From the NCBI GenBank assembly GCA_045401115.1, contig CP174359.1:652667-716666 (forward strand): a stretch of 64,000 nucleotides of DNA. The letters are read 5' to 3'. Positions 14,646 through 61,353 of the stretch are shown piece by piece. Under the pieces are notes generated by a model. The model saw only the letters and a program-made list of their open reading frames with translations. It did not search any database and was not told the DNA's origin. The position numbers and the translations under genes were made by a program. Position 1 is the first letter of the stretch. Each line of letters opens with the position of its first letter. This DNA is from Candidatus Phycocordibacter aenigmaticus. GTDB taxonomy: Bacteria; Patescibacteriota; Minisyncoccia; Phycocordibacterales; Phycocordibacteraceae.

Positions 14646-15359
14646 CTATGCTATGTGTTTTTCCTCAGAAAGAGCGCGCGCTGCAGCTTTTTGTTCAGCG
14701 TCTTGTTTTGACCTTCCTTCACCTTTACAAATTACGATATCTCCCACTGAGAGCGAAACTATGAAATGTTTATCGTGATCAGGACCCTCGGCACGTACCA
14801 CCTCATAATGTGGTGTCATGCCGTATTTTGCTTGCGCTAATTCTTGAAACGCACTTTTAGCATCTTTCCATGCTCCTGTTTCCACCACCTCATCAATACG
14901 TGTTACCACATGCTTTGTTATAAATTGTCGAGCGGTTTCATACCCTTGATCAAGGTAAAGCGCACCAATTACCGCTTCAAAGGTATTCGCTAAAAGGCTG
15001 GTACGGGCACGTTCAAGATCTTTTGCTTCACCACGAGAAAGAAAGAGAGGTTCATGCATGGAAAGAGATTCAGCTACAGAAGCAAGCATTGAAGTGTTCA
15101 CTAACGCGGCACGATACGCTGTCAGCACCCCTTCAGGAGTCTCTGGGTAATGTTCAAAAATATAATCAGTAACCACTAACTCAAGCACTGCGTCGCCAAG
15201 AAACTCGAGACGCTCGTTGTGCTCAATTGGCATATTCGATTCGTTTACATAAGACCGGTGCGTGAAGGCGGTACGAAGTAAGTCTATATCATTAAAAGAA
15301 ACACCTATACGATTCTGGAACTCATCTAAGGCTCTCTGAGGGTTACTGTTCATATACAT
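14646..15359 (-). CDS. rnc: Ribonuclease III
   Basis: 237 aa. RNase III signature ERLEFLGDAVLELVV plus a C-terminal dsRBD-like region. Confidence 0.9.
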   Translation of the reverse strand: MYMNSNPQRALDEFQNRIGVSFNDIDLLRTAFTHRSYVNESNMPIEHNERLEFLGDAVLELVVTDYIFEHYPETPEGVLTAYRAALVNTSMLASVAESLSMHEPLFLSRGEAKDLERARTSLLANTFEAVIGALYLDQGYETARQFITKHVVTRIDEVVETGAWKDAKSAFQELAQAKYGMTPHYEVVRAEGPDHDKHFIVSLSVGDIVICKGEGRSKQDAEQKAAARALSEEKHIA

Positions 15360-21239: not shown

Positions 21240-21366
21240 GTTTTTTAGGGTATGCTCTAATGACTCTAAGTGTCGGTGTTGCTTTGCAGCATCGGAAGCT
21301 CGGTGGAACCGCGGTTGAGCACAATCGTCCGAGCATGGTAAAAGAATCTCATCTTTTACCATGCTC
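21240..21366 (+). promoter_or_regulatory. T-box riboswitch leader (probable Thr-responsive) with an intrinsic terminator, upstream of thrS
   Basis: The conserved T-box core GGUGGAACCGCGG is at 21292..21304. Its 5' flank GCUCGG can pair with CCGAGC, which is also the 5' arm of an 18-bp perfect terminator hairpin (21317..21360) followed by TTTTTT. Pairing is therefore mutually exclusive, as an antiterminator/terminator switch requires. A candidate ACU specifier sits at about 21254. Stem I would be unusually short. Confidence 0.55.
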
Positions 21367-21410
21367 GGACTTTTTTAATTCTTTAGAAATTATTCTTAAC
21401 CACCACCTCT

Positions 21411-23161: not shown

Positions 23162-23203
23162 TAAAAAATAAACGGCTCACCGAGGTGAGCCGTTTATTTT
23201 TAA
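23162..23203. terminator. Bidirectional intrinsic terminator; member of the ATAAACGGCTCA...TGAGCCGTTTAT hairpin family
   Basis: aaaaaataaacggctcaccgaggtgagccgtttattttt: a 14-bp stem with an A-run upstream and a T-run downstream. It lies between convergent thrS and the surface-protein gene. Confidence 0.7.
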
Positions 23204-23328: not shown

Positions 23329-26300
23329 TTAGGAAACTCTGACGTCGAATGCTTGTGCGAGCGCAATCTTGAGGTTAGTGAATTGTGAGGTGTAACTGGT
23401 ATCAAGTGCGTGAGCAAATACCTCAACCAGTTCTGAAAGCGCCGCATCAGAAACCGTTGCTGCCTTTTCTTTAATATCCAAGTCATTAAACTCAGTGCCT
23501 GTTTTGCGCGATCGGCAGAGACGGTCAAGTGTGGTGGCAATTGCTGTTGCGAACCGTGTTGCTGATACTCCTTCAGACTCTATCTTTGCAAGCAATGTAA
23601 ACGCCTCGTCACGATTACCTGAGAGTAATGCGGCAACAAATCGATTCACTGCTTCACCTTCAAGTGCTGGAGCTTTTGCATCTGACTGCGCATGAGATGT
23701 GTGTGCCGGCGCTTCAGGTGACTCTTCTACCACTGACTCCTCCTGTGGAGTGTTTGTTGACTCGGTCGCGCGGATTAACTCACGAACACGAGTGCCTGAG
23801 AGATGGATCCATCCGTCTTCACGTGGAATAGTGCGTACGGCCTCATTCAGTACGTCACCAAACGCTTTAAGTGTTTCGGCACGTTCGGTACGTAAATGAG
23901 TCGCAACCATCACAGCTTCTGGTGAGAGGAGGATGCCTGCAGCGTGTGCACGTGACTCAATAACATCACTTAACTCAGGCAACGCACCTGCGGCATTTGG
24001 TGTGTATACTACCGACGGACGTGATGCCGGTGCAGCGTGTCTTTGAGGTGCCGGCGCTACTGATGGCGCCATAGTTGCAGCAGCAACTGGTTCTACATCA
24101 CGCTCAAACTCATCCGCTTCATTAAACTGCGGTGCTGCTGTTGTATTGTCATATGATGGCGGTTCATAGTCGTGGTAATCACGAGCATTAGATGTTTGCG
24201 GCACTATGCCAATACGCTCTGCAAAGAACCGTAGACTACCGCGCCCAATAAGGACATAGGTAATGCCGAGACTCCATAGCGCGACTGCCAACCAGAAGAG
24301 CATAGTCAGGAATGGACCTGCCTCAAAACCAGTATATGGAACCTGTGCCAGTGATACGAATGATGCGCCGAGCACCTCACCTCCTGGAGCACTCGCCAAA
24401 GAGACGTTTGGCTGATTTAAACCACCACCACAATTAGTACAACCGGTATTAACACGAACTTCCGCAGAACAAGTGACATCACCATGGGGACCTGAGAAAG
24501 TTGCAGTGTAATTAGTATCAGTTGATGGGAACAATGTATTAGTTGTGCCGCCTCCAACCGGAGATATTGAACCAACATTATTATCAATGCTGCCGCTCGT
24601 TACGTTCGCTGAGGTCCAAGTCAGTGTAATTGAGTCACCAGTATCAATCTGTGAATCAGATGCGGTAAGTGTACACGCAGGTACTGGATCTGGTGGTTGA
24701 TTCACGGTTACTGTAGTGCTACAGCTTGTTGTGTCGCCTGCACTGTTTTTTGCAACACCAGTAAATGTTCTCGTGCTTGTCAGCGGAACAGTATCTTTTG
24801 AACCACTACCAATACTTACTGAACCGATACCTTGATTAATTTCAAAAGAAACGGCATTTTGTGTACTCCACTGGAGTGTTGAAGTTGCATTGAGGTCAAC
24901 CACACTTGGGTTTGAGGTGAGTGTACACACTGGAGCATTAGGTGTAGGAGGTGGATCAATAGTAATAGAACACGTACGCTCTGCGCCAGCACTGTTTCTC
25001 ACTTTAAGGTTGTAGGTACCTGCGCCCACGGTCTTTGAACCATCTTGTGGTGTGATGCCAGCACCGTTAAGGAATGCGGCAGCAGCATTGCTAATAGTCC
25101 AACTCAATTCTGTAGTAGTTTCACCCATAGCAATTGCTGGTGCATCAATAGTACACACTGGAGGGTTAGTCACCACCTGTTTGTTTTTAAAGACGACTGC
25201 GGCACATGAAGACCCACTTGGTACATTCACTACACCGCCTGATGGGGTCACTGAAATCAAATCCCATGAACTACCCGCGTCCACTTCAGTCACTGTATGT
25301 AGTCCAGGAGTGACGTTATCAAAACGTGCGTGTCCATTAGCGTCTGAGGTAACAGTTCGACTACCTAGTTTAAAGGTGAACTGCGCAACCGGTGTGAGCG
25401 GTGCTCCGGTAGTATCAAACGTTTCTTTCAGAATACGGATACATCCAGGGGCTGGAGGTATTGGCGGCGGATCAATAGTAATAGAACATGTACGTTCAGC
25501 ACCGGCGCTATTTCTCACTTTGAGGTTGTAGGTACCTGCGCCCACGGTCTTTGAACCATCTTGTGGTGTGATGCCAGCACCGTTAAGGAATGCGGCAGCA
25601 GCATTGCTAATAGTCCAACTCAATTCTGTAGTAGTTTCACCCATAGCAATTGCTGGTGCATCAATAGTACACACTGGAGGGTTAGTCACCACCTGTTTGT
25701 TTTTAAAGACGACTGCGGCACATGAAGACCCACTTGGTACATTCACTACACCGCCTGATGGGGTCACTGAAATCAAATCCCATGAACTACCCGCGTCCAC
25801 TTCAGTCACTGTATGTAGTCCAGGAGTGACGTTATCAAAACGTGCGTGTCCATTAGCGTCTGAGGTAACAGTTCGACTACCTAGTTTAAAGGTGAACTGC
25901 GCAACCGGTGTGAGCGGTGCTCCGGTAGTATCAAACGTTTCTTTCAGAATACGGATACATCCAGGGGCTGGAGGAGGAGTTTCAACAGTAATTGCTGCCG
26001 TACAGGTGGCAGTATCTCCGGCACTGTTTTGAACAGTACCAGTATATACGAACGTACCTGCACTTCCTGGTGTTATAGATTTTGTCCCATTTGCAATTGG
26101 ACTCGTCCAAAGAGAGAGCGCTCCCACTCCACGATTAATAGAAAAACTTGTTGCGTTGCGTGTTTCCCACGTAATATCAGCATCTTCGCCGAGTTCAATA
26201 GTACTTGGTGCGATGGACATTGTACATACAGGTGGCTGGATTTGCGGAGCAACAGTGACCGTATCAGAACACGTAGCGGTGCGACCAGTAGCACTCGTTA

Positions 26301-26742
26301 CCGTCATAGTGTATGTGGTACTTCCGACCGGAGGAGTAACTGAACGGGTACCGTTTGAGATATTTACCGCCCCAATATTTTGATTAATAGTTGCAGTACT
26401 TGCACGCGTGGTCGTCCAAGACAGGTTGGTGCTGTCACCAAAAGACAGAGAAGATGGGTTCGCGGTAAGTGTACATACTGGAGTAATGTGACCGCCACCG
26501 CCGCCACCGCCATCACCGCCACCGCCGCCGATAGTGCCACCGCCGCCGCCCCAACCGCCGCCACCACCACCGCCGCCGTCGTGCTTAATACAAGTATGAC
26601 AACTAATAATCGCGTTGGCAGTATTGATACCTCGATCCACAACACTTTCTGAAAGGTCCACTGTAAACCATGCCCCGGCAAAAAGCAGGATAAATATAAA
26701 AAATGAACGAGCAATGGTGTTATATACGTTGTTATTTATCAT
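23329..26742 (-). CDS. Giant cell-surface protein with N-terminal signal/anchor, poly-Gly tract, about 7 Cys-bracketed Ig-like repeats, a TM helix and a ~350-aa cytoplasmic tail
   Basis: 1137-aa ORF with N-terminal hydrophobic FFIFILLFAGAWF. A Gly tract (GGGGGGGGWGGGGGTIGGGGGDGGGGGGG) is encoded by the GCC/ACC-repeat DNA at about 26490..26580. Repeated ~85-aa modules follow the pattern PVCT...LxW...TCxxTITV, alternating with prealbumin/Cna-B-like modules. The motif VPYTG is followed by a TM helix and basic residues (RGSLRFF). The start overlaps the upstream sortase stop (ATGA). Confidence 0.75.
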   Translation of the reverse strand: MINNNVYNTIARSFFIFILLFAGAWFTVDLSESVVDRGINTANAIISCHTCIKHDGGGGGGGGWGGGGGTIGGGGGDGGGGGGGHITPVCTLTANPSSLSFGDSTNLSWTTTRASTATINQNIGAVNISNGTRSVTPPVGSTTYTMTVTSATGRTATCSDTVTVAPQIQPPVCTMSIAPSTIELGEDADITWETRNATSFSINRGVGALSLWTSPIANGTKSITPGSAGTFVYTGTVQNSAGDTATCTAAITVETPPPAPGCIRILKETFDTTGAPLTPVAQFTFKLGSRTVTSDANGHARFDNVTPGLHTVTEVDAGSSWDLISVTPSGGVVNVPSGSSCAAVVFKNKQVVTNPPVCTIDAPAIAMGETTTELSWTISNAAAAFLNGAGITPQDGSKTVGAGTYNLKVRNSAGAERTCSITIDPPPIPPAPGCIRILKETFDTTGAPLTPVAQFTFKLGSRTVTSDANGHARFDNVTPGLHTVTEVDAGSSWDLISVTPSGGVVNVPSGSSCAAVVFKNKQVVTNPPVCTIDAPAIAMGETTTELSWTISNAAAAFLNGAGITPQDGSKTVGAGTYNLKVRNSAGAERTCSITIDPPPTPNAPVCTLTSNPSVVDLNATSTLQWSTQNAVSFEINQGIGSVSIGSGSKDTVPLTSTRTFTGVAKNSAGDTTSCSTTVTVNQPPDPVPACTLTASDSQIDTGDSITLTWTSANVTSGSIDNNVGSISPVGGGTTNTLFPSTDTNYTATFSGPHGDVTCSAEVRVNTGCTNCGGGLNQPNVSLASAPGGEVLGASFVSLAQVPYTGFEAGPFLTMLFWLAVALWSLGITYVLIGRGSLRFFAERIGIVPQTSNARDYHDYEPPSYDNTTAAPQFNEADEFERDVEPVAAATMAPSVAPAPQRHAAPASRPSVVYTPNAAGALPELSDVIESRAHAAGILLSPEAVMVATHLRTERAETLKAFGDVLNEAVRTIPREDGWIHLSGTRVRELIRATESTNTPQEESVVEESPEAPAHTSHAQSDAKAPALEGEAVNRFVAALLSGNRDEAFTLLAKIESEGVSATRFATAIATTLDRLCRSRKTGTEFNDLDIKEKAATVSDAALSELVEVFAHALDTSYTSQFTNLKIALAQAFDVRVS
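24962..25993 (-). repeat. Exact in-frame tandem duplication (2 x 516 bp) inside the surface-protein gene
   Basis: About 470 bp are identical at period 516, for example the 25001.. and 25517.. copies of ctttRaggttgtaggtacctgcgcccacggtctttgaacc... This yields two identical 172-aa protein units and the identical plus-strand shadow ORFs 25052..25531 and 25568..26032. Confidence 0.85.
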
Positions 26743-28650: not shown

Positions 28651-28674
28651 TCAATTAATAACTGTATCCTCTTA

Positions 28675-28710
28675 AAACAGCACCTACTTATAGGTGCTGT
28701 TTTTTATAAA
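28675..28710. terminator. Bidirectional intrinsic terminator (aaaacagcacctacttataggtgctgtttttt)
   Basis: 10-bp stem flanked by AAAA and TTTTTT. It lies between the convergent secreted-protein gene and gyrB. Confidence 0.65.
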
Positions 28711-32204: not shown

Positions 32205-32240
32205 TAAAACACCAGATACGTATCTGGTGTTTTTTAAAAC
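32205..32240 (+). terminator. Intrinsic terminator downstream of pheS (aaaacaccagatacgtatctggtgtttttt)
   Basis: 9-bp stem plus T-run, read directly from the sequence. Confidence 0.65.
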
Positions 32241-33136
32241 CCACTCACTCTATAAAAAAGTTCGCCATCTTTAATATACAGAGATCCGTCAATAACACGG
32301 AATACTGCTTGAGGCGCAGTAGCAACTTGTACGAGCAATCTGGGCTGACGTATGTCTGCTTCAACCAAAAAGACGCCTGAGTGTTCAGTTTGGTATAGCA
32401 CCCCGCCGGCAAAGAACTGCGCATGAGTCACTGTTTTTTTGCCTTCCTCAAGAAAGAAATGGGAAACACAAAGGGATGGGCGTGTACAAAATGAGCTTGG
32501 TGGTGCAGTATTGCGTGTCCATTTTAAAAGTAAATTACCGTTATTGATCACCAACGCTGCTCCGTCACTTTCTGCAACAGGTAGTGATGGCTCAGCGGTA
32601 TCGTGCTGTGTGCTTGACGCGACTGTATTTACATCATTATCAGTGGTAGTGCTTACTGTAAATGCTTCTTGCAGGCGAATATACTCTCGCTCACTTACAT
32701 ACTGTGTGGTCGATGTCGCATTAGTCGTGGTTGCATGTATTTCAAGGTCCTGCTCTACCTGTACAAGCCTCATCTCAATGGGTTGCGGTACCACAAACAT
32801 TGAAGCATTAGTCACTAACTGAGACTCAACAACGATGTCTTTTGACCATGTATGATAACCGTCTTTTCTCCCCTGCACTACATACGACCCCGGTTCGATA
32901 TTATCTAAAAAGAAAGACTTTGAAAAAAGACTTGTACGGCCAATCACTTCACCATTCAGGTGTATTGAAGTTCCTGAGATTGGTGCCGAAAGATATACTC
33001 CTCCATTTGAAACAAGCGAAAAGCCATCAAGACGATACCCTGACGCATAAAGCACTACAATAGGCGTAATGAGCGCAAAGAGCGCAAAAAATAGCAATGA
33101 TACGATACGGCGCGTTTTAAGAGAGAGCGGTTCCAT
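32234..33136 (-). CDS. Membrane-anchored hypothetical protein with PEGA-like domain
   Basis: 300 aa with an N-terminal TM (IVSLLFFALFALITPIVVLYASGY). The block GEVIGRTSLFSKSFFLDNIEPGSYVVQGRKDGYHTW resembles a PEGA domain. It lies downstream of the GT2 synthase gene. Confidence 0.5.
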   Translation of the reverse strand: MEPLSLKTRRIVSLLFFALFALITPIVVLYASGYRLDGFSLVSNGGVYLSAPISGTSIHLNGEVIGRTSLFSKSFFLDNIEPGSYVVQGRKDGYHTWSKDIVVESQLVTNASMFVVPQPIEMRLVQVEQDLEIHATTTNATSTTQYVSEREYIRLQEAFTVSTTTDNDVNTVASSTQHDTAEPSLPVAESDGAALVINNGNLLLKWTRNTAPPSSFCTRPSLCVSHFFLEEGKKTVTHAQFFAGGVLYQTEHSGVFLVEADIRQPRLLVQVATAPQAVFRVIDGSLYIKDGELFYRVSGF

Positions 33137-33149
33137 ACACTTATTCTAC

Positions 33150-33400
33150 CGCAAGGATGGGGTTTTATCGTCCTTACTCTTAGGAGAAAGCGAAGTTTGC
33201 TCCCGGCGAGCGTTCGGTAGTGAAGAAGAATTATCTTCTTCACTACCCTCTCTGATCTTGGTGGTAAGCACAGCTTGCTCCCGGCGAGCGTTCGGAAATG
33301 TATAAAAGATTACTTTCATACATTTCCCTCTCTGCTCTTGGGAGTAAATAAAGTTTGCTCCATGCGTCGGTTCGACAATACAGAAGGATTACCTTCTGTA
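33150..33400. repeat. Three tandem ~79-bp units, each with a conserved 23-nt core (gtttgctcccggcgagcgttcgg, or variant gtttgctccatgcgtcggttcga) and a unit-specific perfect 12-13-bp hairpin with an identical ATTA loop
   Basis: Cores start at about 33195, 33273 and 33353. The hairpins are gtgaagaaga-atta-tcttcttcac, ggaaatgtataaaag-atta-ctttcatacatttcc (one mismatch) and acaatacagaagg-atta-ccttctgtattgt. Each is followed by a semi-conserved ccctctctg-N-ctttgg block. The stem sequence differs completely between units while pairing is kept. Confidence 0.75.
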
Positions 33401-34950
33401 TTGTTCTCTCTCGACTTTGGAGTGACCCAGAAACCAATATATTTTTTAAACGCCAAACGAAGTTGCGCTTCAATGCCGGGAATGGCACTAAAAATAATCA
33501 TAGTAAATGGCACTAAAAGCCATTGGAGCCATAAACGCACAAAAGCAAACCGGCTGTGGTTTTTCGGACGTACCGGCATTAGGCGCATACCGTAAATAGC
33601 TAAAAATACCAACCCGAGCATTGCGGCGGTTAAAAACCATGATGAAATAATCGGAAGGTTATATGAAAGCACTGTTGCGTTAAACGCAGCACCACCGATT
33701 AATAACGGAAGCCACCCAACCGCAAACAGGAAAAGTGGTTGCACCGCCAACGACCACGCCCCCTCAATATGAACGCCGAGCAAATGAATTTTTTTTCTCA
33801 GAGGAATACGTGAGTTTTTTATAAAATGGAACATAAGGTAAGGAATATTTTCCGCGCTTCCATACATCCACCGCAAATGTTGTTTATATAAACGTGATGC
33901 CGTACTAAAGAAACCAGGACCGACATTTGCATCCATAGAAACCGGATACAGTATCGGGACTACCCTATAGTTACCGTCGTAGTGCATAAAAAGATTAAAG
34001 AAAATGCGAGAATCTTCGTTCACCATATTACGTTGCCAATAATCAGCTTCAACAAGCGCTTTTAGAGGAATAGCGTGAGATGAAAATGTTGAGAGACGTT
34101 CCGGTCGTTCTTGTTGAATGAGTTGCCAAAATGTTGAAGAATACGCCAAAATGCGAGAAAGAGTCGGTGATGACCAAATATTATTGTTATAGAGCGGTAC
34201 AGGTTGAAACGATGCATGCTGCGCATCTTCTGTGGTTAAAAAATTCCAAGTTACACACGAAAAATAATCGGGATAAATCACCGTATCAGCATCGAAGGCA
34301 GATACGAGTACGTTCTCATATGCAAAACCATGTGTATCAACTACACGTTTCGTCGCCTCACGCGCTGCGTGTGCAATGTTTGAACCCTTCCCGGCAATTT
34401 CTCCTACAATGTCTGCAGGATGTACCGTAATAATAATTTCAAGAAATGTGTCTTGAAAAGCTTCTTGAACACGCTGTGCTATTTCATATGCTTCTGTGCC
34501 AGCACGCTCTTCAGCGCCAAGCACGACTGCAATTTGCTTGGTGTTAAAACGTGACTCAGCAAGCGCTCTCACACTCTCATAGAGCACTTCATAAGGCTCT
34601 TTATAGAAAGGGAAAATAACGACATGATGCACATCGTCAGCTCGTAGTTTAGTAAGCCGCTCACTCCAGTCAATAGTTAAATTGTGTCTGAGGCGATGAA
34701 AACTGTGCCGTAAATGAATAGTGAGGAAAATAGTTTTAAAAAGCCAATAAGCTGAAAAACCAATAGTAAAATATGCAACGATCTTCGGTATAAAGAATGA
34801 AAGTATGATGAATACTATGAGCGTACCAACCGACAAAATACCGGGGATAGTTTCAAAAAAACGATAGAGTGTGCGATCGCTTCCAGAAAGGTCAGAAGCC
34901 CGGCCAATATGTAAATACTCGTTTCTGCGTTTTTTTTCCATATTTTTCAC
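33316..34950 (-). CDS. Processive family-2 glycosyltransferase (cellulose/chitin/hyaluronan-synthase-like polysaccharide synthase), polytopic membrane protein
   Basis: 544-aa ORF with multiple TM helices. Motifs VVIFPFYKEP, FDADTV (DxD) and QHLRW (QxxRW) are diagnostic of processive GT2 synthases. The annotated 3' end reads through the hairpin repeat array, so the true stop may differ. Confidence 0.7.
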   Translation of the reverse strand: MKNMEKKRRNEYLHIGRASDLSGSDRTLYRFFETIPGILSVGTLIVFIILSFFIPKIVAYFTIGFSAYWLFKTIFLTIHLRHSFHRLRHNLTIDWSERLTKLRADDVHHVVIFPFYKEPYEVLYESVRALAESRFNTKQIAVVLGAEERAGTEAYEIAQRVQEAFQDTFLEIIITVHPADIVGEIAGKGSNIAHAAREATKRVVDTHGFAYENVLVSAFDADTVIYPDYFSCVTWNFLTTEDAQHASFQPVPLYNNNIWSSPTLSRILAYSSTFWQLIQQERPERLSTFSSHAIPLKALVEADYWQRNMVNEDSRIFFNLFMHYDGNYRVVPILYPVSMDANVGPGFFSTASRLYKQHLRWMYGSAENIPYLMFHFIKNSRIPLRKKIHLLGVHIEGAWSLAVQPLFLFAVGWLPLLIGGAAFNATVLSYNLPIISSWFLTAAMLGLVFLAIYGMRLMPVRPKNHSRFAFVRLWLQWLLVPFTMIIFSAIPGIEAQLRLAFKKYIGFWVTPKSRENNTEGNPSVLSNRRMEQTLFTPKSREGNV

Positions 34951-49824: not shown

Positions 49825-49908
49825 CCCTTGGTCAACACCCGGGTGTTGACCAAGGGGTGGTAACCCATAAAACATAAACGGCTCAATGTATTGAGCCGTT
49901 TATGTTTT
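49825..49908. repeat. Second copy of composite palindromic element: 34-nt perfect palindrome (CCCCTTGGTCAACACCCGGGTGTTGACCAAGGGG) plus hairpin H (ATAAACGGCTCA-atgtat-TGAGCCGTTTAT)
   Basis: Read directly from the sequence, in inverted order relative to the 44-kb copy. It lies between the 3' end of the YcnI-like gene and the gap start. Confidence 0.75.
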
Positions 49909-50866: not shown

Positions 50867-52309
50867 TTATATCACGTCTTGCGGACAGTATGCAGCCAGC
50901 TCAGGAGTAAGCGTGTTGCAGATACGTCTTGTTTTCTCCACGCTATACCATCCATCTAAATCACCAAGAACTTCTGTATAGCAAGCATCCTTATGGGTCA
51001 CTGAAAGGGTCGCATCTGCACAAAAATCAAGCGCGGCTTCATATTCTTTTTCTGGAATTCCATGTTCAAGGAGACCGTGAGCAAAACCAGCGATACACCG
51101 GTTTTGGTGTGTACCAAGTCGACGACATACATCAACAACCTCAGCACTATTGAAAGACGGCAATTCATTGTACGCATACAAACCTGCAAGATATTCAAGG
51201 GCCACATTCAAATGCGGTTCTTTTGTGCCTGAAAGCACTGCTTGAGCTGCAGGGAGGAATTGATTATCGGCCATCCAGAAAATAACCGAGTTCATGTTAC
51301 CGTAGCATGATTCAGCATACTGTCCTTCTTGTGCAGCGCACAGAGTAACCGGGTTTTCTTTTGACACATCCAATCCATACTCATTATTAATATATAAATT
51401 TGCAATGCCGTTAAATAAACCTGACGCACAACGGAATCGTTCTTCCTCCCCCTCTGACGCAACTTCACATTGCGCAAGTGCCGCATCTATTACTGCCGAT
51501 ACGCTGCCAAATTCTCCTGTATTCGCAATAAAAGTTTCCATCACCCCATGGCCAATGCCGTGATAACACTGCAAACGTGCATCGGGCGCATCCCGCCCCA
51601 CTGCTTCGCCAATCGCTTCACACACACCGCCGGCACTCGCAATATCATCGGTGGCACCAAGATATGCTTCCATAAAACCATGATGGAAGCCTGAAGCACA
51701 TGCTGACGCTTTTGGTGTCATGATTGAATTTGAGTCTTTACGATAAAATCCATAACTTGCCAAGCCAATATTATGCGCAATGTAGTGACAAGACTGCGCA
51801 AACTCAGGTTCGCTTTCATAGAGTTCAGCCACTTTGTCATACGCTGCGCCAAGCCCATCTTCAGCAAGTGCAAGAAAAATATCGTCCTGCCAGCACGCAA
51901 GATTACCTCCCCGAGAAATACAACTATCTGTTAATTCACCATCTACACCAGTGACGCGTACGATACCAAAATAAAATGGTGCGAGATGGTCATGATATTT
52001 AAAAAGACCTGATTCCGTGAAGGTAAACTCCCACGTGGCTCCTGGCGGCAGTGCTTGTTGCGTATCAAACTCGGGATATGCTTCGTGTGTTGGATGAAAA
52101 TCAGAAGCCGGCCAAAAATATTTGTTACTTCTATTAACAAATGTCACTGTCTCCCCCACAGCAACCGTAATCTCAGTTGGTGAAAAACCATTTTCAGTGA
52201 GCAGCACAGTACGCGGCGGTGTTACTATCAGATTGATAAGTAACACCAAGCCCGTTATCATTATAACGCTCCCAACTCCAACCAATACTCCTTTTTTATT
52301 TTTATTCAT
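50867..52309 (-). CDS. Paralog family member A1: TM anchor + cupredoxin-like domain + Cys/His-rich helical repeats
   Basis: The cupredoxin-like block (GETVTFVNRSNKYFWPASDFHPTHEAYPEFD...TWEFTFTESGLFKYHDHLAP) is followed by repeats such as SCHYIAHNIGLASYGFY, CASGFHHGFMEAYL and CYHGIGHGVMETF. Start trimmed to Met15. Confidence 0.65.
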   Translation of the reverse strand: MNKNKKGVLVGVGSVIMITGLVLLINLIVTPPRTVLLTENGFSPTEITVAVGETVTFVNRSNKYFWPASDFHPTHEAYPEFDTQQALPPGATWEFTFTESGLFKYHDHLAPFYFGIVRVTGVDGELTDSCISRGGNLACWQDDIFLALAEDGLGAAYDKVAELYESEPEFAQSCHYIAHNIGLASYGFYRKDSNSIMTPKASACASGFHHGFMEAYLGATDDIASAGGVCEAIGEAVGRDAPDARLQCYHGIGHGVMETFIANTGEFGSVSAVIDAALAQCEVASEGEEERFRCASGLFNGIANLYINNEYGLDVSKENPVTLCAAQEGQYAESCYGNMNSVIFWMADNQFLPAAQAVLSGTKEPHLNVALEYLAGLYAYNELPSFNSAEVVDVCRRLGTHQNRCIAGFAHGLLEHGIPEKEYEAALDFCADATLSVTHKDACYTEVLGDLDGWYSVEKTRRICNTLTPELAAYCPQDVI

Positions 52310-53780
52310 AAACAAAATCGTATGAGCAATATTTCTGATACGGTTCCTCAATAGTATTACATATATCCGCTACCTTCTCTTTTGTATAAATCCCCTTAAA
52401 GGTGCGAGTAATATTCCAGTAGCATACGTCCCGTTCATGAGCAGTGAGTATGTCGGTACGACAAAAATCCAAAGCTTTTTCATATTCACGATTTGGCTCG
52501 CCAAAGGCTGCAAATGCACCCGTTAATCCTTTCATACAATCTGTTTGTAAAAACTGCGGTAAGCGCCGGCAGTCATATACTAAATCGGAAAAATCATCTT
52601 CAAGAATACGTGCGCCAAGTGCACCAGCAGCAAATGAATTAATAATCGTACCGGCAATCAAATCGTCAGGAATAGTGGAGATGTGTTTCTCATATATCAT
52701 TCCCATATCAATATTTACCTCAGTATTGAGTTTCATTGCGACTTCGTAGTAGCACGCACGTGCAATTTCATCACTTTCAAATGAAGCGCATAATATAAAC
52801 GGTTTATCATCAGAATAATGTAATCCAAATTGATTGTTCCACATCCAGTCAGCGATGACATTAAAGGCGCCTTGGAGGCATTGTTCACGCAGCGGAGTCT
52901 CTTTAAGTCGATCACACGCGGTGAGGGCGGGAGCAACTAACTTTTCTGTATTTCCCCAATCTTCAATATTAAGGGGTTCAGGGACAAAGCCGTGCCCAAT
53001 GGCGTGATAGCAGTTTAATTGTATCCATGGCAATTCATCTTCACGTCCGGTAAGGTTCTCACAAATTTCAAGTGCGAGATCGTAGTCCGGTTCATCGCGC
53101 AGGAAATGCTCAAGGAATCCATGGTAGTAACCGTAGCCACAGTACGAAGTTTCCGGCGGGAACTCCAATTTACTCATGTCTTTGTGACCAAGATACAAAC
53201 CATACTCAACTTCACCGAGTTTGTGTGCCATCCAGTGACATCCGATAGAACTAAATTCGGGTTCGTTTTCATACAGCTCTTCGAAGAGTGCGAACGACTC
53301 TTTTACTCCCTCAGTTTCTAACGTATTGGCAAGTTCCCGTTCCCAACATGCCTGTTTTTCTGACGCGCTTAATTCATCAGAACGTTCAATACAACTCACC
53401 ACTTCAGTGACATCACCTACAAGAATCTGGCCTCGAAAGTAGGGACGGAGATGGTCGTGGTACCACCACACACCATCTTTTTTAAACGTAAACTCCCAAC
53501 GCTCACCCGGTTTTATCGGCCTACCCACATCAAACTCGCTGTATATTTCATGTAGTGGATGGTTGTCGGATGCGACCCACAACGAATGACTACTCTTGTT
53601 TAAAAAAGTAACTGTGTCCCCTGAATCAATCACGAGTTTCTTTGGCGAGAAGCCACTGTCTTTTAGAACGACTGTGTTTGGCGTTAACGGCTGATACTGA
53701 GACAATGCCAATCCTCCCACAAGAAACGTGAGTGCGAGAATGCTAATAATGATGAGAGCGGGTCGTAAAAAAATATTCAT
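52302..53780 (-). CDS. Paralog family member A2 (cupredoxin-like + Cys/His-rich repeats)
   Basis: 492 aa. GCHWMAHKLGEVEY, YCGYGYYHGFLEHFL and NCYHAIGHGFVPEP. Near-identical to A3 over long stretches at the nucleotide level. Confidence 0.65.
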   Translation of the reverse strand: MNIFLRPALIIISILALTFLVGGLALSQYQPLTPNTVVLKDSGFSPKKLVIDSGDTVTFLNKSSHSLWVASDNHPLHEIYSEFDVGRPIKPGERWEFTFKKDGVWWYHDHLRPYFRGQILVGDVTEVVSCIERSDELSASEKQACWERELANTLETEGVKESFALFEELYENEPEFSSIGCHWMAHKLGEVEYGLYLGHKDMSKLEFPPETSYCGYGYYHGFLEHFLRDEPDYDLALEICENLTGREDELPWIQLNCYHAIGHGFVPEPLNIEDWGNTEKLVAPALTACDRLKETPLREQCLQGAFNVIADWMWNNQFGLHYSDDKPFILCASFESDEIARACYYEVAMKLNTEVNIDMGMIYEKHISTIPDDLIAGTIINSFAAGALGARILEDDFSDLVYDCRRLPQFLQTDCMKGLTGAFAAFGEPNREYEKALDFCRTDILTAHERDVCYWNITRTFKGIYTKEKVADICNTIEEPYQKYCSYDFVYE

Positions 53781-53814
53781 AGCGTACTCTTACATGCTCG
53801 ATATATGTACTGCG

Positions 53815-55290
53815 CTATTCATATGAGTATTCATAAGAGCAGTATTCTTTATATGGCTCTGCAATATTGGTACATACCTCTGCCATTTTCTCTTTTGTAT
53901 AAACCCCTTTAAAGGTGCGGGTAATATTCCAGTAACATGTGTCTCTTTCTTTCTCTGTAAGTATATTCATACTGCAAAAATCTATTGCCTTTTCATATTC
54001 ACGATTTGGCTCGCCGTATGCCACAAATGCACCCGTTAATCCTTTCATACAATCTGTTTGTAAAAACTGCGGTAAGCGCCGGCAGTCATATACTAAATCG
54101 GAAAAATCATCTTCAAGAATACGTGCGCCAAGTGTAGTTGCCATAAATGAATTAATGACCATACCTGCGATTCTTTCGTTTGGTATATCAGAAACATATT
54201 TCTCATGCGCCAATATGACATCGTTATCAACCTTTGGATTTAACTTCATTGCCACTTCGTAGTAACACGCTTCTGATGTATACGTATCTTCAAAAAGAGC
54301 ACATATTTCAAGTGGTGTGTCGTCTGGGAAATACAAACCAAATTGGTTATTCCACATCCAGTCAGCGATGACATTGAAGGCACCTTGGAGACATTCAACA
54401 CGAAGTGCCTGCTCGTCAAGCCGATTACACGCATTCAGTGCAGGTGCTACCAGCTCTTTTGGCTTCCCCCACTCTTCAATATCGAGTGGTTCGGGAACAA
54501 AGCCGTGTCCTATGGCGTGGTAGCAATTCAACCGTATGCGTGGCAATTCATCTTCACGGCCGGTAAGATTCTCACAAATTTCAAGTGCGAGATCGTAGTC
54601 CGGTTCATCGCGCAGGAAATGCTCAAGGAATCCATGGTAGTAGCCGTAACCACAGTACGAAGTTTCCGGCGGGAACTCCAATTTACTCATGTCTTTGTGG
54701 CCAAGGTAAACGCCATACTCAACTTCACCGAGTTTGTGTGCCATCCAGTGACATCCAATTTGACTAAACTCAGGCTCACTCTCGTATAATTTTTTAAAGA
54801 GTACAAATGATTCCTTCACCCCTTCAATTTCCAGGGTATTGGCAAGTTCCCGCTCCCAACATGCTTGCTTCTGTGATGTATTCAACTCGTCGGAGCGTTC
54901 AATACAACTCACCACTTCAGTGACATCACCTACAAGAACCTGGCCGCGAAAGTAGGGACGGAGATGGTCGTGGTACCACCACACACCGTCGTTCTCGAAT
55001 GTGAACTCCCAACTCTCGCCGGGCTGTATGGGCCTGCCTATATCAAATTCAGTATAGATGTCATGTTGTGGATGGTTGTCGGATGCAACCCATAACGAAT
55101 GACTGCTCTTGTTTAAAAAAGTCACTGTACCCCCTGAGTCAACCACGAGTTTCTTTGGTGAAAAACCACCATCTTTCAGTACGACTGTGTTTGGTGCTAA
55201 GGATTCATAATTGGAGACCACGATTCCGGCCGCGAAAAATGCGAAAGCAAGAATACTGATGATAATACTGGGTCGTAAAAAAATATTCAT
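53815..55290 (-). CDS. Paralog family member A3 (cupredoxin-like + Cys/His-rich repeats)
   Basis: 491 aa. About 85% identical to A2 (same motifs). For example nt 54040..54130 equals 52530..52620. Confidence 0.65.
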   Translation of the reverse strand: MNIFLRPSIIISILAFAFFAAGIVVSNYESLAPNTVVLKDGGFSPKKLVVDSGGTVTFLNKSSHSLWVASDNHPQHDIYTEFDIGRPIQPGESWEFTFENDGVWWYHDHLRPYFRGQVLVGDVTEVVSCIERSDELNTSQKQACWERELANTLEIEGVKESFVLFKKLYESEPEFSQIGCHWMAHKLGEVEYGVYLGHKDMSKLEFPPETSYCGYGYYHGFLEHFLRDEPDYDLALEICENLTGREDELPRIRLNCYHAIGHGFVPEPLDIEEWGKPKELVAPALNACNRLDEQALRVECLQGAFNVIADWMWNNQFGLYFPDDTPLEICALFEDTYTSEACYYEVAMKLNPKVDNDVILAHEKYVSDIPNERIAGMVINSFMATTLGARILEDDFSDLVYDCRRLPQFLQTDCMKGLTGAFVAYGEPNREYEKAIDFCSMNILTEKERDTCYWNITRTFKGVYTKEKMAEVCTNIAEPYKEYCSYEYSYE

Positions 55291-55323
55291 AGTGATGTTA
55301 TTCTCCTCACTGTATATACTGCG

Positions 55324-56796
55324 TTATTCATACGTACAATATTTTTGATACGGTGCCGCAATCAGTGCGCACACTTTTTCCATTTTATCTTTTAGATACA
55401 CTGCTTCAAATGTACGGACAATATTCCAGTAACAAATATCTCTCTCTTCTTCAGATAGTATATCCAAATTACAAAAATCAATTGCTTTTTTGTATTCGTT
55501 CTCTGGTTCACCAGCAGCCATAAATGCTGCAGATAATCCTTTCATGCAGTCTGTCTGTAAGAATTCTGGTATCTGCCTGCACTCATACACAAAACGGGAA
55601 AAGTCGTTGTTGAGAATGTCTTGACCAAGAGCGCTCGCTGCAACAGAACTCAGCACCATACCTGCAATAGCTTCATCGGGTATATGAGATATGTATTTAT
55701 TATATGCACGCACAATATTATTATCAACACTCGGGTTCAGTCGCATTGACACCTCGTAATAACACGCAGACTTCTTTTCATGATCATCAAAAGATGCGCA
55801 GAGAGCAAGAGGTTTATCTTCTGGGTAGTACAAACCAAATTGGTTATTCCACATCCAATCACCAATTACATTAAACGTCCCTTGATAACATTCGTGACGC
55901 TCGTCGTCACGGCTCATTCTCTCACATGCGTCTAACGCCGGAGCAACCATTTTCCGTGGGTCTCCCCACACTTCAACATCATCCGGCTCAGGAACAAATC
56001 CGTGACCGACCGCATGATAGCAGTTCAAGCGAATTCGTGGGATTCTATCTTCAAGTCTGGTAATGAGTGTTTGACAGAACTGGTTGGCGGCATCGTAATC
56101 AGGGTCGTCACGTAGGTAATGCTCCAGAAATCCATGATAGTAGCCGTATCCACAATACGATGTCTCCGGAGGAAATTCTAAACGAGAAAGATCTTTATGG
56201 GTTAGGAATTCGCTATACTCAACCTCACCAATTTTATGCGCCATCCAGTGACATCCAATAGTAGTAAAATCTTTATCTGTATTATACAGTTCAGTAAATA
56301 ATTCGAACGAAGCTGTGGTTCCATGTTCCTTAAGTTCGTTTGCAAGCTCTCGCTCCCAGCACGACTGTTTATCCTCAATTGACGCTCCTTCGAGTTCATC
56401 GAGACAACTCTTTGATTCGTCGGCATTACCCACCACCACTTTTCCGTTGTAGTAAGGGCGCAGATGGTCGTGATACCACCAGACTCCCTCTTTTTCAAAA
56501 GTAAACGTCCACGATTCATTTTTCTCAAGTGGATGTCCTGCATCAAACTCCGTATATAAAGTATGCTGAGGATGATTATCAGAAGCAGGCCAAAATGAAA
56601 ATGAGCCTTTATTTATAAATGTTACCGTCTCCCCCACTTGAATTGCTATTCGCGAGGGATGAAAACCACCATCTTTAAAAACAACTGTGTTTGGTCCCAC
56701 AGGTGTATAGTTAGACACCACGATTCCGCCTACGAGAAACGCGAGTGCGAGAATGCTAATGATAATAAAAGCGGAAAGAGGTGCTGAAATTTTCAT
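55324..56796 (-). CDS. Paralog family member A4 (cupredoxin-like + Cys/His-rich repeats)
   Basis: 490 aa. GETVTFINKGSFSFWPASDNHPQH...WWYHDHLRPYY, GCHWMAHKIGEVEY and NCYHAVGHGFVPEP. Confidence 0.65.
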   Translation of the reverse strand: MKISAPLSAFIIISILALAFLVGGIVVSNYTPVGPNTVVFKDGGFHPSRIAIQVGETVTFINKGSFSFWPASDNHPQHTLYTEFDAGHPLEKNESWTFTFEKEGVWWYHDHLRPYYNGKVVVGNADESKSCLDELEGASIEDKQSCWERELANELKEHGTTASFELFTELYNTDKDFTTIGCHWMAHKIGEVEYSEFLTHKDLSRLEFPPETSYCGYGYYHGFLEHYLRDDPDYDAANQFCQTLITRLEDRIPRIRLNCYHAVGHGFVPEPDDVEVWGDPRKMVAPALDACERMSRDDERHECYQGTFNVIGDWMWNNQFGLYYPEDKPLALCASFDDHEKKSACYYEVSMRLNPSVDNNIVRAYNKYISHIPDEAIAGMVLSSVAASALGQDILNNDFSRFVYECRQIPEFLQTDCMKGLSAAFMAAGEPENEYKKAIDFCNLDILSEEERDICYWNIVRTFEAVYLKDKMEKVCALIAAPYQKYCTYE

Positions 56797-56805
56797 GGAG
56801 TCTTT

Positions 56806-58050
56806 TTATTGTATATCATTAGCGTTTGGTTGAATATTATATCCTTCTTTGTTTAAACACTGCGTACTCCATGGTTCAGGTAGTGTTCGGCAAAACGTTT
56901 TAAATGGCTCTGAATCCGGTATAAAGTTAAACGTTGAATAGAATAACAGTTCATCGTAGCACCGCTGACCAACACCATGCTCTTCAGCTATTTCACACAA
57001 ATCAACCGCGCGCGAGGCAAGGCGATAATCGGTTTCAATAAACCGCGATGCTGAATTTGCAAAACACTGCCCTTGTCGCTCTTGCGGCAATCCTTCACAA
57101 ATCGGAACAATCCGGCTCGCATCAAAATTAAATTGAGCTGTTAACACATAGAACATCGCATTGTAACAACGATGCATTGACTGCCCATCAGGTACAAGAT
57201 TACAAAATCGCTGGAGTAAGTTCGGGTCACTAAGCTCCTCGCGATAGAGCGGCCAACTTTCTCGATGACATGCCGCACGACGCTCGCCAGAAAATGTTCT
57301 GCAAAACGCTTCGGCTTCTGCTTGGGTTTCCGGCTCTATATCCTCAACGAGGGCGAAATCCTCAGGCTCAAGCGGTTGAAAAATCTGCATGTAGGCGCCC
57401 TCATAACATGTTTGTGTATAATCGCGCTCGCCTTTTTTTGCCACTTGATCACATACTCCGGTTGCCTCACTGATATGAGCATCAGTAATATACATAGAAA
57501 GATGTCCTAGAGCGTGGTAACAACTTGCCTGTTCAAGACCAGTAAACGTTTTTGCTTCACTATTTTCACAGATAGTATCAAGTTGAGGAATGAGTTCTTG
57601 AAGTTCTTCACCTACAAAAACCTTATCGCGGAAACGCTCTTGAAATGCACCGTGAATAGCACCGTTTGAACAAACACCGGTCGGTGCACGCGCAATAACT
57701 TCAGTCCATTTAGAAAGGTCCTTAGCTGCTTCTTTAGCAGATAAGTTATGACCAAGTACATGGCAATAAAAATAACTAGGGTCACGTTCCTGTACTTTAA
57801 CTGTTACTTGAAACGCTTCCTCCATAGTAAGTCCTTTATCCATAAGACGCGGTATCTCGGTATCGTAACAATGAGGCGCATTATTTTCTTCCGCACACGC
57901 TTCCATCACCTCGTCAGCGAGCTCTGCAAAGGTTTTACCAGACGTACCGACAGTATCTACAAACAAGCCCTGCAGCTGCCCTGCAGCTGCATAGCCTATA
58001 ACAATAAGAACTAAAATACTGATTATAAAAATATTTTTCTTTTTTTGCAT
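56806..58050 (-). CDS. Paralog family member B1 (signal anchor + Cys/His-rich repeats, no cupredoxin domain)
   Basis: 414 aa. YCHVLGHNLSAKEAAKDL, CSNGAIHGAFQERF and CYHALGHLSMYI. Paralogous to 61354..62610. Confidence 0.6.
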   Translation of the reverse strand: MQKKKNIFIISILVLIVIGYAAAGQLQGLFVDTVGTSGKTFAELADEVMEACAEENNAPHCYDTEIPRLMDKGLTMEEAFQVTVKVQERDPSYFYCHVLGHNLSAKEAAKDLSKWTEVIARAPTGVCSNGAIHGAFQERFRDKVFVGEELQELIPQLDTICENSEAKTFTGLEQASCYHALGHLSMYITDAHISEATGVCDQVAKKGERDYTQTCYEGAYMQIFQPLEPEDFALVEDIEPETQAEAEAFCRTFSGERRAACHRESWPLYREELSDPNLLQRFCNLVPDGQSMHRCYNAMFYVLTAQFNFDASRIVPICEGLPQERQGQCFANSASRFIETDYRLASRAVDLCEIAEEHGVGQRCYDELLFYSTFNFIPDSEPFKTFCRTLPEPWSTQCLNKEGYNIQPNANDIQ

Positions 58051-58055
58051 ACAAT

Positions 58056-59057
58056 TTATGGACGATCTTCAATGCCTTCGGTTAAATCAGCTAATCTCAG
58101 ACATCGATCTCTCTCCTGTGGAGATACTAACACGCAAAATTGTTCTGGTTCATCGCGAAGCTCATCTAAAGCATAGAAACTCCATGACGCTCCCGCTAGA
58201 CACGCCACCTCCCCAAGGGAACCAAACGCAGCGCAATGTTCACGTACACGCGGCGCGTTGTATTCAGTACTCGGTGCTAAATTAGATCCAATACCCATAA
58301 AACATCGCTCACGATAGATAGACGACGCAATATCACCACATACAGCTTTTTGTTGCTGAATGTTGTTATTCAACATCCGCAAAAACCACTGACCAAGTTC
58401 AAAATAGCAAGACTCTCGAAAAACCTCATCGACTTCAGTGCAGGGAGTATATGGGTCATTTTTATTAAACTCCCGGGGTTTCGGTATTTCTCCATCAGGA
58501 CCAACAACAAGTGGAGTGTTGTACTCCATAAACACTCCTGAAGTACAGCCTAAAAGTTGGGTGACTTGAGTAGTTTTTGCACATAACTCAAGTGCTTTAG
58601 AGACACTCTCATATCCGACATATTCCATAATACCGTGACCGATACCATGTTGGCACCCGGTACCTAAGACTGAGTACGCATTAACACATTGTGTATCAAG
58701 CTCACTGATTACAGAAACACCTTCTTCACTAATTGCTCGCCCAAAAAACCCATGGAAACAACCGAAACTAAAACTTGCATCACAGTAACGGATACCCGCA
58801 ACACCTTCATGTTCATAAAAAAGCTCTCCGATAATATGTGTTGAAAGATGTCGCCTCTCAAAGGGTGCGACTTGATTCTTCTTTTTAAATTCAGAAAATG
58901 CATCCTGCGCACCTACTTTATTAATGCGTGTATCCCAATACGCACGATTATAGGACTCACTCTCTATTGAATAGATTGGATGTGAGTCAGCGGTTAAAAA
59001 TGTGCCGATAAACATACCGACAATGATAAGTACTCCAAATATTGCAAAACGTCTCAT
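58056..59057 (-). CDS. Paralog family member C1 (signal anchor + Cys/His-rich repeats)
   Basis: 333 aa. FSFGCFHGFF, CQHGIGHGIMEY and GCTSGVFMEYNTPL. Paralogous to 59060..60091. Confidence 0.6.
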   Translation of the reverse strand: MRRFAIFGVLIIVGMFIGTFLTADSHPIYSIESESYNRAYWDTRINKVGAQDAFSEFKKKNQVAPFERRHLSTHIIGELFYEHEGVAGIRYCDASFSFGCFHGFFGRAISEEGVSVISELDTQCVNAYSVLGTGCQHGIGHGIMEYVGYESVSKALELCAKTTQVTQLLGCTSGVFMEYNTPLVVGPDGEIPKPREFNKNDPYTPCTEVDEVFRESCYFELGQWFLRMLNNNIQQQKAVCGDIASSIYRERCFMGIGSNLAPSTEYNAPRVREHCAAFGSLGEVACLAGASWSFYALDELRDEPEQFCVLVSPQERDRCLRLADLTEGIEDRP

Positions 59058-59059
59058 AG

Positions 59060-60091: not shown

Positions 60092-60095
60092 ACCT

Positions 60096-61313: not shown

Positions 61314-61353
61314 AAAACGTACTTAGTATATCAGAATCCTCACCAATACATTC

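Follow-up and report, generated by a model that had tools for sequence, protein, structure and literature searches.

A tandem array of covarying hairpin modules overlapping the 3′ end of a glycosyltransferase gene in Candidatus Phycocordibacter aenigmaticus

In a 64,000-nt stretch of the Candidatus Phycocordibacter aenigmaticus genome (assembly GCA_045401115.1, contig CP174359.1, positions 652,667 to 716,666; hereafter the window), a GT2 glycosyltransferase gene is followed by a tandem array of hairpins and then by a PEGA-like gene, all read on the minus strand (Table 1). An initial annotation had described the array as three units with a period of 78–80 bp, each with a near-identical 23-nt core and an inverted repeat closed by an ATTA loop. 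Our repeat analysis agrees with this description. Tandem Repeats Finder called positions 33178–33361 (period 78, 2.3 copies, 75% matches), and repeat finding returned three 77-nt copies starting at 33177, 33255 and 33335, with spacings of 78 and 80 nt. The 23-nt core was found exactly at 33195–33217 and with one mismatch at 33273–33295, where shuffled sequences lead one to expect 0 matches; the third copy differs at 6 positions. The arms of all three inverted repeats are separated by 4 nt, reading ATTA on the plus strand and UAAU on the minus strand. The units are named A, B and C in the order in which the minus strand is read. Single units folded with z = −3.9 to −6.2 against shuffles, and the whole array with z = −9.1. 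The GT2 protein, tail included, is identical in two sources, NCBI and Logan (P0001), and since each unit has a unique stem, collapse of the array during assembly is unlikely.

Each unit constitutes a module of ~78–81 nt that folds on the gene strand into a ~70-nt irregular rod of three helices, P1, P1b and P2. A 5′ block (ACUCCNAAGNNNAGAGAG) pairs with the core (CCGAAC-NNNC-GCN-NGGAG) to give P1 (5 bp, CUCC(N):(N)GGAG) and P1b (4–5 bp); in the latter, the G of AAG and the codon of the variable residue x are paired with four core bases. Conserved purine-rich internal loops, AA/GCN and AGAGAG/GAAC, set P1 and P1b apart from P2, a hypervariable stem-loop that is perfectly paired across the family over 10–15 bp (13–15 bp in the window). 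The CAAGCUU tail after the core builds a small second hairpin, P3 (AAGC-loop-GCUU), which is longer (7–11 bp) in the copies that lie away from GT2 genes and whose variation is compensated. Minimum-free-energy folding of units A and B returned the P1/P1b/P2 rod directly.

The 5′ block is also coding sequence. On the gene strand, it reads ACTCCNAAGNNNAGAGAG in each unit and encodes T-P-K-x-R-E, so that unit A begins at a Thr codon of the GT2 C-terminus. The plus-strand ccctctctg…ctttgg block, listed in the initial annotation as a semi-conserved part of each unit, is indeed present in the units but is in fact the reverse complement of the T-P-K-S-R-E codons, the last conserved ones of GT2. In an alignment of 30 GT2 homologues, T507, P508, K509 and R511 are invariant, and every C-terminus read (40 of the 120 homologues listed) has the …GFWVTPKxR(E) ending. 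Most of these proteins terminate 0–15 residues past TPKxR, and few bear unit-derived tails, whose stop positions differ; a coding repeat conserved among GT2 homologues, which would have spoken against a structural element, was therefore not what we found. The window GT2 extends about 30–33 residues past its conserved end by read-through of unit A into unit B, where the stop codon UGA (33316–33318) lies in the 5′ arm of P2. The suggestion that this tail is an artefact thus holds for the ~33 residues that lack counterparts in most homologues, but not for the 5′ part of unit A, which consists of real TPKSRE codons. Depending on the locus, the GT2 stop falls at the start of P2, in its loop, in its 3′ arm, at the end of the core or past the whole unit; it is within the unit in loci L084, L008, L092 and L093. 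Across 74 GT2 loci, the TPK codons do not generally pair with downstream sequence (mean pairing probability 0.37 versus 0.55 at control positions), and the pairing therefore belongs to the module and not to the GT2 gene family.

As a separate observation, the UAA triplets of the three UAAU loops fall in three different frames (offsets 2, 0 and 1 relative to GT2 for units A, B and C). A ribosome in any frame would hit a stop inside the array, an arrangement with a chance probability of about 2/9. UAAY loops also occur in L084, in unit 1 of L008 and in unit 1 of L076.

The pairing scheme is borne out by covariation. A covariance model, R1, was built from 10 units, and the resulting alignment holds 12 units from 9 loci. 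In it, 86.4% of the pair-cells are paired, versus 63.5% in shuffles and 41–44% in slid-partner controls, and 22 of the 25 pairs show changes on both sides. The covariation score was 0.625 versus 0.21, a value that none of 500 shuffles matched. The six core differences of unit A are compensatory: GUCG:CGAC and CUCCA:UGGAG in unit A stand for GAGC:GCUC and CUCCC:GGGAG in unit B. Consistently, P1b changes in step with the codon for residue x (AGC:GCUC, UCG:CGAC, AAC:GUUC in L001, GGU:GCUC with G-U in L002 and CAGCG:CGCUG in L005), and P1 follows the third, synonymous position of the Pro codon (CUCCA:UGGAG, CUCCC:GGGAG, CUCCG:CGGAG in L008 and GCCG:CGGC in L005). The initial annotation had noted that pairing is kept while the stem sequence is replaced; this holds, and it extends to P1, P1b and other genomes. 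What is unusual is that half of the closing helices are the terminal codons of a conserved gene, and that the non-coding partner follows even synonymous changes in them.

Window unit B, L008 unit 2 and L084 have near-identical 5′ blocks (18/18) and cores (about 22/23) but wholly different P2 stems, and the GT2 proteins of L008 and L084 are each only about 70% identical to that of the window. The paired ends, or feet, and the internal loops are thus constrained in sequence, and P2 only in its pairing. The core is conserved largely because it base-pairs with the GT2 codon block.

Table 1 Features of the array and of the window referred to in the text (positions within the window)
Feature	Position	Strand	Remarks
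GT2 glycosyltransferase ORF (open reading frame)	33316..34950	−	Pfam PF13632; conserved end at 33406
Unit A	33346..33423	−	First module, begins at Thr codon of GT2 C-terminus; covariance-model match 88.4 / 87.9 bits
Unit A 5′ block	33406..33423	−	ACT CCA AAG TCG AGA GAG = T-P-K-S-R-E; supplies 5′ strands of P1 and P1b
Unit A P2 (inverted repeat)	33375..33404 (arms 33375-33387 / 33392-33404)	−	13 bp, perfect stem, 100% complementary; UAAU loop 33388-33391
Unit A core	33353..33374	−	CGAACCGACGCATGGAGCAAAC; 3′ strands of P1b and P1, plus tail
Unit B	33266..33345	−	80 nt; P1 CUCCC:GGGAG, P1b GAGC:GCUC; covariance-model match 89.3 bits; fold
Unit B P2 (inverted repeat)	33294..33327 (arms 33294-33308 / 33313-33327)	−	15 bp, 93% complementary; UAAU loop 33309-33312
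Unit C	33188..33265	−	P2 perfect, P1/P1b partly decayed (CCACC vs GGGAG; GAUC vs GCUC); covariance-model match 85.2 bits
Unit C P2 (inverted repeat)	33216..33247 (arms 33216-33229 / 33234-33247)	−	14 bp, perfect stem, 100% complementary; UAAU loop 33230-33233
Trailing partial 5′ block copy	33169..33186	−	CTCCTAAGAGTAAGGACG
−10-like box TAGAAT	33143..33148	−	6 nt upstream of PEGA-like ATG; putative leaderless-type promoter
PEGA-like gene	32234..33136	−	Downstream of array; PF08308, borderline score
RNase III gene	14646-15359	−	PF14622, PF00636, dsrm
Intrinsic terminator	21352-21395		Canonical, bidirectional (A-run, G+C stem, T-run); intergenic
Intrinsic terminator	23167-23198		Canonical, bidirectional; intergenic
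Intrinsic terminator	28674-28703		Canonical, bidirectional; intergenic
Intrinsic terminator	49873-49904		Canonical, bidirectional; intergenic

Folding of the units on both strands, as proposed in the initial annotation, showed that each folds beyond its shuffles. The sense strand gave the more stable structure in 11 of 13 units, and it also bears the internal G-U pairs of P2; the single P2 mismatch of unit B is G-U on the minus strand and A·C on the plus strand, and the 5′ arms of P2 are 73% purine. The assignment of the element to the sense strand is moderately supported.

To place the array among its relatives, we used a metagenome scan that gave 80 GT2 loci, together with ten further loci from nine contigs. 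A PEGA-like gene follows GT2 in every inspected locus of the 80. A covariance-model search with the units, also suggested in the initial annotation, found matches both at GT2 ends and at loci not linked to GT2. At GT2 ends, the module is limited to the closest GT2 subclade, in 0–3 copies: the window has three units, L008 (the same genome as L088) has two and a remnant, and L084, L001, L002, L092 and L093 have one each. L005 carries a sequence-divergent version and L003 a partial one, and no module was found in L006, L090, L089 or L010. The array is thus absent from or variable among relatives in the manner of a minisatellite. The initial annotation had named such a pattern as evidence against its own interpretation, and in part this is what we see. 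With the trailing partial block, the array takes in block notation the form (A-B)3-A′, and the A-B-A′ layout recurs in L001 and L008.

Two pairs of loci show how units come and go. Compared with L089 (GT2 83% identical), L001 has an exact insertion of 81 nt that keeps the frame, comprises 27 stop-free codons and lies between two copies of the codon block; the flanking direct repeat of about 19 nt is imperfect, and tandem duplication fits equally well. L084 and L093 share 91% identity over the final 300 nt of GT2, through the spacer and into the start of the PEGA gene, yet the segment from the Thr codon to GCAAG is wholly different in P1, P1b and P2. Either a unit was replaced here, or the two loci have lost different members of an ancestral array. 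The P1/P1b types of window units A and B match those of L008 units 1 and 2, respectively, indicating that the duplication is old.

The GT2–PEGA spacer of L042 holds another hairpin, unrelated to the module. It is perfect over ~40 nt (GGGGTATACCCCCACACC...GGTGTGGGGGTATACT, L042:4040-4110), lies exactly at the −10 box and sits between two copies of GG(A/G)GTATAC. The near-identical L012 (4040-4075) lacks it; hairpins of this type are also present in L017, L019 and L028.

Few copies were seen away from GT2 genes. A narrow-pattern scan of 185,579 genomes, a set from which the window's own genome is absent, returned only three loci, L088, L086 and L087, of which the latter two are not GT2-linked. 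These two are about 85% identical over about 90 nt (by eye), and in both the stop codon of the neighbour gene lies inside the 3′ arm of P3. Three further unlinked matches came from covariance-model searches of about 490 kb of related DNA: a tandem pair beside the 3′ end of tsf in L076, a copy between tRNA genes in L048, and a weak match (22.7 bits), again between tRNA genes, at L093:78-148. All unlinked copies (at least five) adjoin gene or tRNA ends, and they carry the 5′ block like the GT2-linked ones. Decay is seen in P2 of L086, in P2 of L048 and in P1 of window unit C. No further copy was found in the window with filters off, pattern scanning of viral contigs gave 0 matches, and no clear target duplication was seen at L086 or L087. 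The modules thus form a family that is low-copy, as far as could be seen, and is located at gene 3′ ends and in intercistronic spacers of Paceibacteria-like relatives.

Against Rfam, tRNA-Thr was the sole scorer in the window at the gathering threshold, and E-value scans of the array and of L087 gave chance-level matches only. As our search for literature on such repeats in Patescibacteria also returned nothing relevant, we take the family to be previously undescribed. Little is known of non-coding elements in these bacteria, which have tiny genomes and are almost uncultured.

The surroundings of the array bear on its possible role. In all 7 module-bearing loci scanned and in most loci with long spacers, a TAnnnT box ends 6–8 nt before the PEGA ATG. 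Among 36 window genes, only 4 have a Shine-Dalgarno-like motif, and many have a TAnnnT box 6–11 nt before the ATG, which suggests that leaderless-type starts are widespread in this genome. The array therefore sits between the coding end of GT2 and a separate, probably leaderless-type promoter of the PEGA gene. In agreement with the initial annotation, it is not a canonical terminator: a terminator scan found none in the array and no T run of at least 4 follows any stem. The genome's real terminators have an A-run, a stem and a T-run (Table 1), and hence the units are not its normal terminators.

Tentatively, and short of regarding it as probable, we favour the interpretation that the modules are a REP (repetitive extragenic palindromic)/Correia/RPE-like structured repeat with minisatellite-like change in unit number, acting as an RNA processing or stability module. 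The rods would form in the GT2 transcript after ribosomes clear the last codons. As double-stranded RNA modules of the REP/BIME or Correia kind, they might be processed, for example by RNase III, or might block 3′ exonucleases; in either case they would set the 3′ end and the stability of the GT2 mRNA and part GT2 from the separately promoted PEGA gene. Gain and loss of units shift the copy number at the GT2 locus between 0 and 3. Transcription of the modules, a trans-acting factor and an effect on mRNA are all postulated by analogy with known repeats; the RNase III gene encodes the only candidate factor for such rods seen in the window. If the RNA role is true, the array would be a concrete case of transcript demarcation in an organism poor in Shine-Dalgarno motifs and rich in leaderless starts. 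In practice, the covariance model can serve to annotate the modules and to avoid calling read-through as protein tails.

Several observations weigh against this interpretation. L006 and L090, with 76–77% GT2 identity, have no module at all, and the module is therefore dispensable. Relative to the neighbouring genes, four or five unlinked copies run antisense, so that a strictly sense-strand role in cis cannot hold for all members. A canonical terminator adjoins the module in L086 and in L087, where the module is accordingly not needed for termination. Finally, G-U and A·C counts of 11 versus 14 reveal no strand asymmetry, although these come from a model-fitted alignment and are partly an artefact of it.

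The module shares traits with several known systems and fully fits none of them. Like REP/BIME and Correia/ERIC elements, it is a short imperfect palindrome that occupies gene 3′ ends or intercistronic sites, may face either way and at times forms tandem clusters; it would fold into long RNA stems and is patchy among relatives. Cleavage of Correia stems by RNase III is documented, as are changes in transcript levels caused by ERIC elements located at 3′ ends (PMC10969869). Those elements number tens to hundreds per genome, whereas the module is low-copy as far as seen. It also differs from those elements in that sequence conservation is confined to the feet and internal loops while the central stem is wholly different in every copy, and in that its 5′ foot falls on the terminal codons of a gene. 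We saw neither a TA nor a short target-site duplication, and inspection of the ORFs by eye identified no RAYT or other transposase. Rickettsia palindromic elements (RPEs) are inserted into coding genes without shifting the frame, and the extra peptide segment that they add does not destroy the protein (PMC10969869). The 81-nt insertion of L001 and the 78-nt unit A of the window are likewise in-frame palindromic insertions in an ORF. RPEs, however, are about 100–150 bp long, occur in many unrelated genes and are alike throughout, whereas the module lies at the extreme C-terminus, forms tandem arrays and is not translated through in a conserved manner.

Further parallels are partial as well. Mycobacterial interspersed repetitive units (MIRU; Supply et al. 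1997) are reportedly tandem units of 46–101 bp in operon intergenic regions, oriented with the genes and variable in copy number between strains; their short ORFs are said to overlap the ends of flanking genes, and dyad symmetry to be lacking. The module is tandem and copy-variable like MIRU, and its rod-like, covarying hairpin is unlike them. Phage T7-type RNase III hairpins are irregular, contain internal loops and are intercistronic, and the hairpin that remains after cleavage stabilises the upstream mRNA. Unlike those, the module is repeated and dispersed.

The main competing view is that the array is purely selfish or mutational DNA without an RNA role, a minisatellite or a MITE (miniature inverted-repeat transposable element)-like palindrome, which we consider rather unlikely. 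Template switching during replication, a single event of which can generate or mend a perfect stem (PMC8794818), would keep the stems perfect by copying one arm from the other, and slippage or unequal recombination between 5′ blocks would shift the number of units. The patchy distribution of 0–3 copies in close relatives, a variation like that of minisatellites and of MIRU-type variable-number tandem repeats, fits this view. So do the exact filled/empty pair L001/L089 flanked by direct repeats, the whole unit swapped within the 91%-identical flanks of L084/L093, the decayed copies (L086 P2, L048 P2 and P1 of window unit C) and the second, unrelated hairpin insertion in the GT2–PEGA spacer (L042 versus L012). 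In addition, imperfect P1 and P1b amount to terminal inverted repeats like those of MITEs. Internal loops, however, would not survive template switching, and AA/GCN and AGAGAG/GAAC are conserved from genome to genome. Moreover, P1 and P1b covary separately, even with synonymous codon positions of a real gene. Conserved loops and the separate covariation of short helices with codons thus argue that selfish DNA is not the only explanation. Furthermore, untranslated units have flanks with about 97% identity even between genomes whose divergence is saturated, which points to purifying selection on the sequence.

Alternatively, the module could be the substrate of structure-specific recombination or transposition, a folded single-stranded DNA hairpin of the attC or IS200/IS605-end type whose site overlaps the GT2 end; the terminal codons would arrive as part of the element, and each further tandem unit would represent another insertion. 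We judge this distinctly unlikely. Its resemblance to attC comprises paired conserved ends, an unpaired spacer, a second short helix, a variable terminal stem-loop, strand asymmetry compatible with single-stranded DNA, and occurrence in arrays. The A-B-A′ layout with its duplicated ~18–19-nt block, the cassette-like replacement starting exactly at the Thr codon and the 5′ block shared by unlinked copies would also follow. On the other hand, the attC motifs RYYYAAC (R″) and GTTRRRY (R′) are both absent from 33160–33430 on either strand by regular expression, there are no cassettes at a period of 78–80 nt, and no integrase or transposase was noticed by eye, without a profile search, among window ORFs of at least 110 aa or around L086 and L087. 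The attC-like sites offered in the initial annotation therefore found no support, nor was anything found in favour of its guide-like modules. The family is low-copy, its unlinked members lack a clear target duplication, and differential loss from an ancestral two-unit array explains the L084/L093 swap without any enzyme. A bolder version, in which the units are mini-cassettes of a structure-specific single-strand recombination or transposition system undescribed in Patescibacteria that rebuilds the last codons of the gene, strikes us as improbable; such a system would explain the A-B-A′ layout, the unit swap within 91%-identical flanks and the dispersed copies. If the DNA role is true, the module would be a new small mobile or recombining element.

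We also considered a translation-sensing RNA switch, in which the GGAG of the core has two alternative partners, the upstream 5′ block (P1) and the following one (P3), and ribosomes on the last GT2 codons flip the register down the array, altering read-through or processing before the PEGA gene. P1 and P3 exclude each other, P3 is strong in L001 (GAGCAAGC:GCUUGCUC) and in L002 (a 15-bp hairpin), its inner helix covaries (AAG:CUU versus AAA:UUU, and GGAG:CUCC versus GGG:CCC in L084 and L093), and the GT2 ORF always enters the structure. That P3 would act in this way is nonetheless hard to credit, given that its outer helix arises automatically from the tandem repeat, stop-codon position is not conserved, no co-oriented ORF precedes the unlinked copies and the PEGA gene has its own −10 box.

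The coding alternative, a 26–27-residue peptide repeat at the GT2 C-terminus (TPKSRE...PNARREQ), possibly with a −1 frameshift at G_GGA_AAU, is largely excluded: although neither unit A (78 nt) nor the L001 insertion (81 nt) breaks the frame, the −1 frame is open for 57 codons (33146–33319, minus strand) from unit B to 10 nt before the PEGA ATG, and an X_XXY_YYZ heptamer lies at 33322–33328 (minus strand), two codons before the GT2 stop, most homologues end soon after TPKxR with stops that differ by locus, unit B measures 80 nt, core differences show no synonymous bias (GCT/GTT/CGA; CGG/ACG/ATG), and a protein search with six translations of the units found nothing at E ≤ 10. The heptamer is within the 5′ arm of P2 and not 5–9 nt upstream of it, its position is not conserved, and L003 has the same heptamer without a change of frame; we regard heptamer and open −1 frame as coincidence.

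Several other candidates were tried and rejected. A CRISPR array, already discounted in the initial annotation, does not fit, as the variable 28–34-nt segments are inverted repeats with a constant loop, the conserved ~48-nt blocks pair with each other, and arrays have at most 3 units at any locus. Frameshifting or translational coupling was set aside because stop positions are not conserved. By eye, the AGAGAG/GAAC loop is neither a K-turn nor a loop-E, two extra bases on the non-bulged strand being a misfit. For a tRNA-like GGTTCGA on the plus strand, ARAGORN returned nothing and no matching stem was found.

Upstream of the PEGA gene, further repeats were noted in relatives. Motifs of the type ACTGTTCACTGT occur as direct and inverted repeats just upstream of the PEGA −10 box in L002:2187-2250, L008:4190-4290, L020, L057 and L090:1650-1705, and TGATACTT repeats lie at the same spot in L015, L032 and L050; both could be operator-like sites.

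In the remainder of the window, ORFs of at least 110 aa resemble housekeeping genes by eye (rpoB/C, SMC, dnaE, thrS, gyrB, pheS, tsf, rpsB and prfA). At 50867–56796 on the minus strand, four paralogues of about 490 aa stand in tandem and resemble each other at the N-terminus (MNIFLRP...); beside them, at 56806–63799 on the same strand, is a run of six genes (333–418 aa) with hydrophobic N-terminal segments, whose products are probably membrane or secreted proteins. In addition, the 1137-aa ORF at 23329–26742 (minus strand) contains, at 26491–26578, a CCG-rich 15-nt tandem repeat (ACCGCCACCGCCGCC) in about 6 copies.

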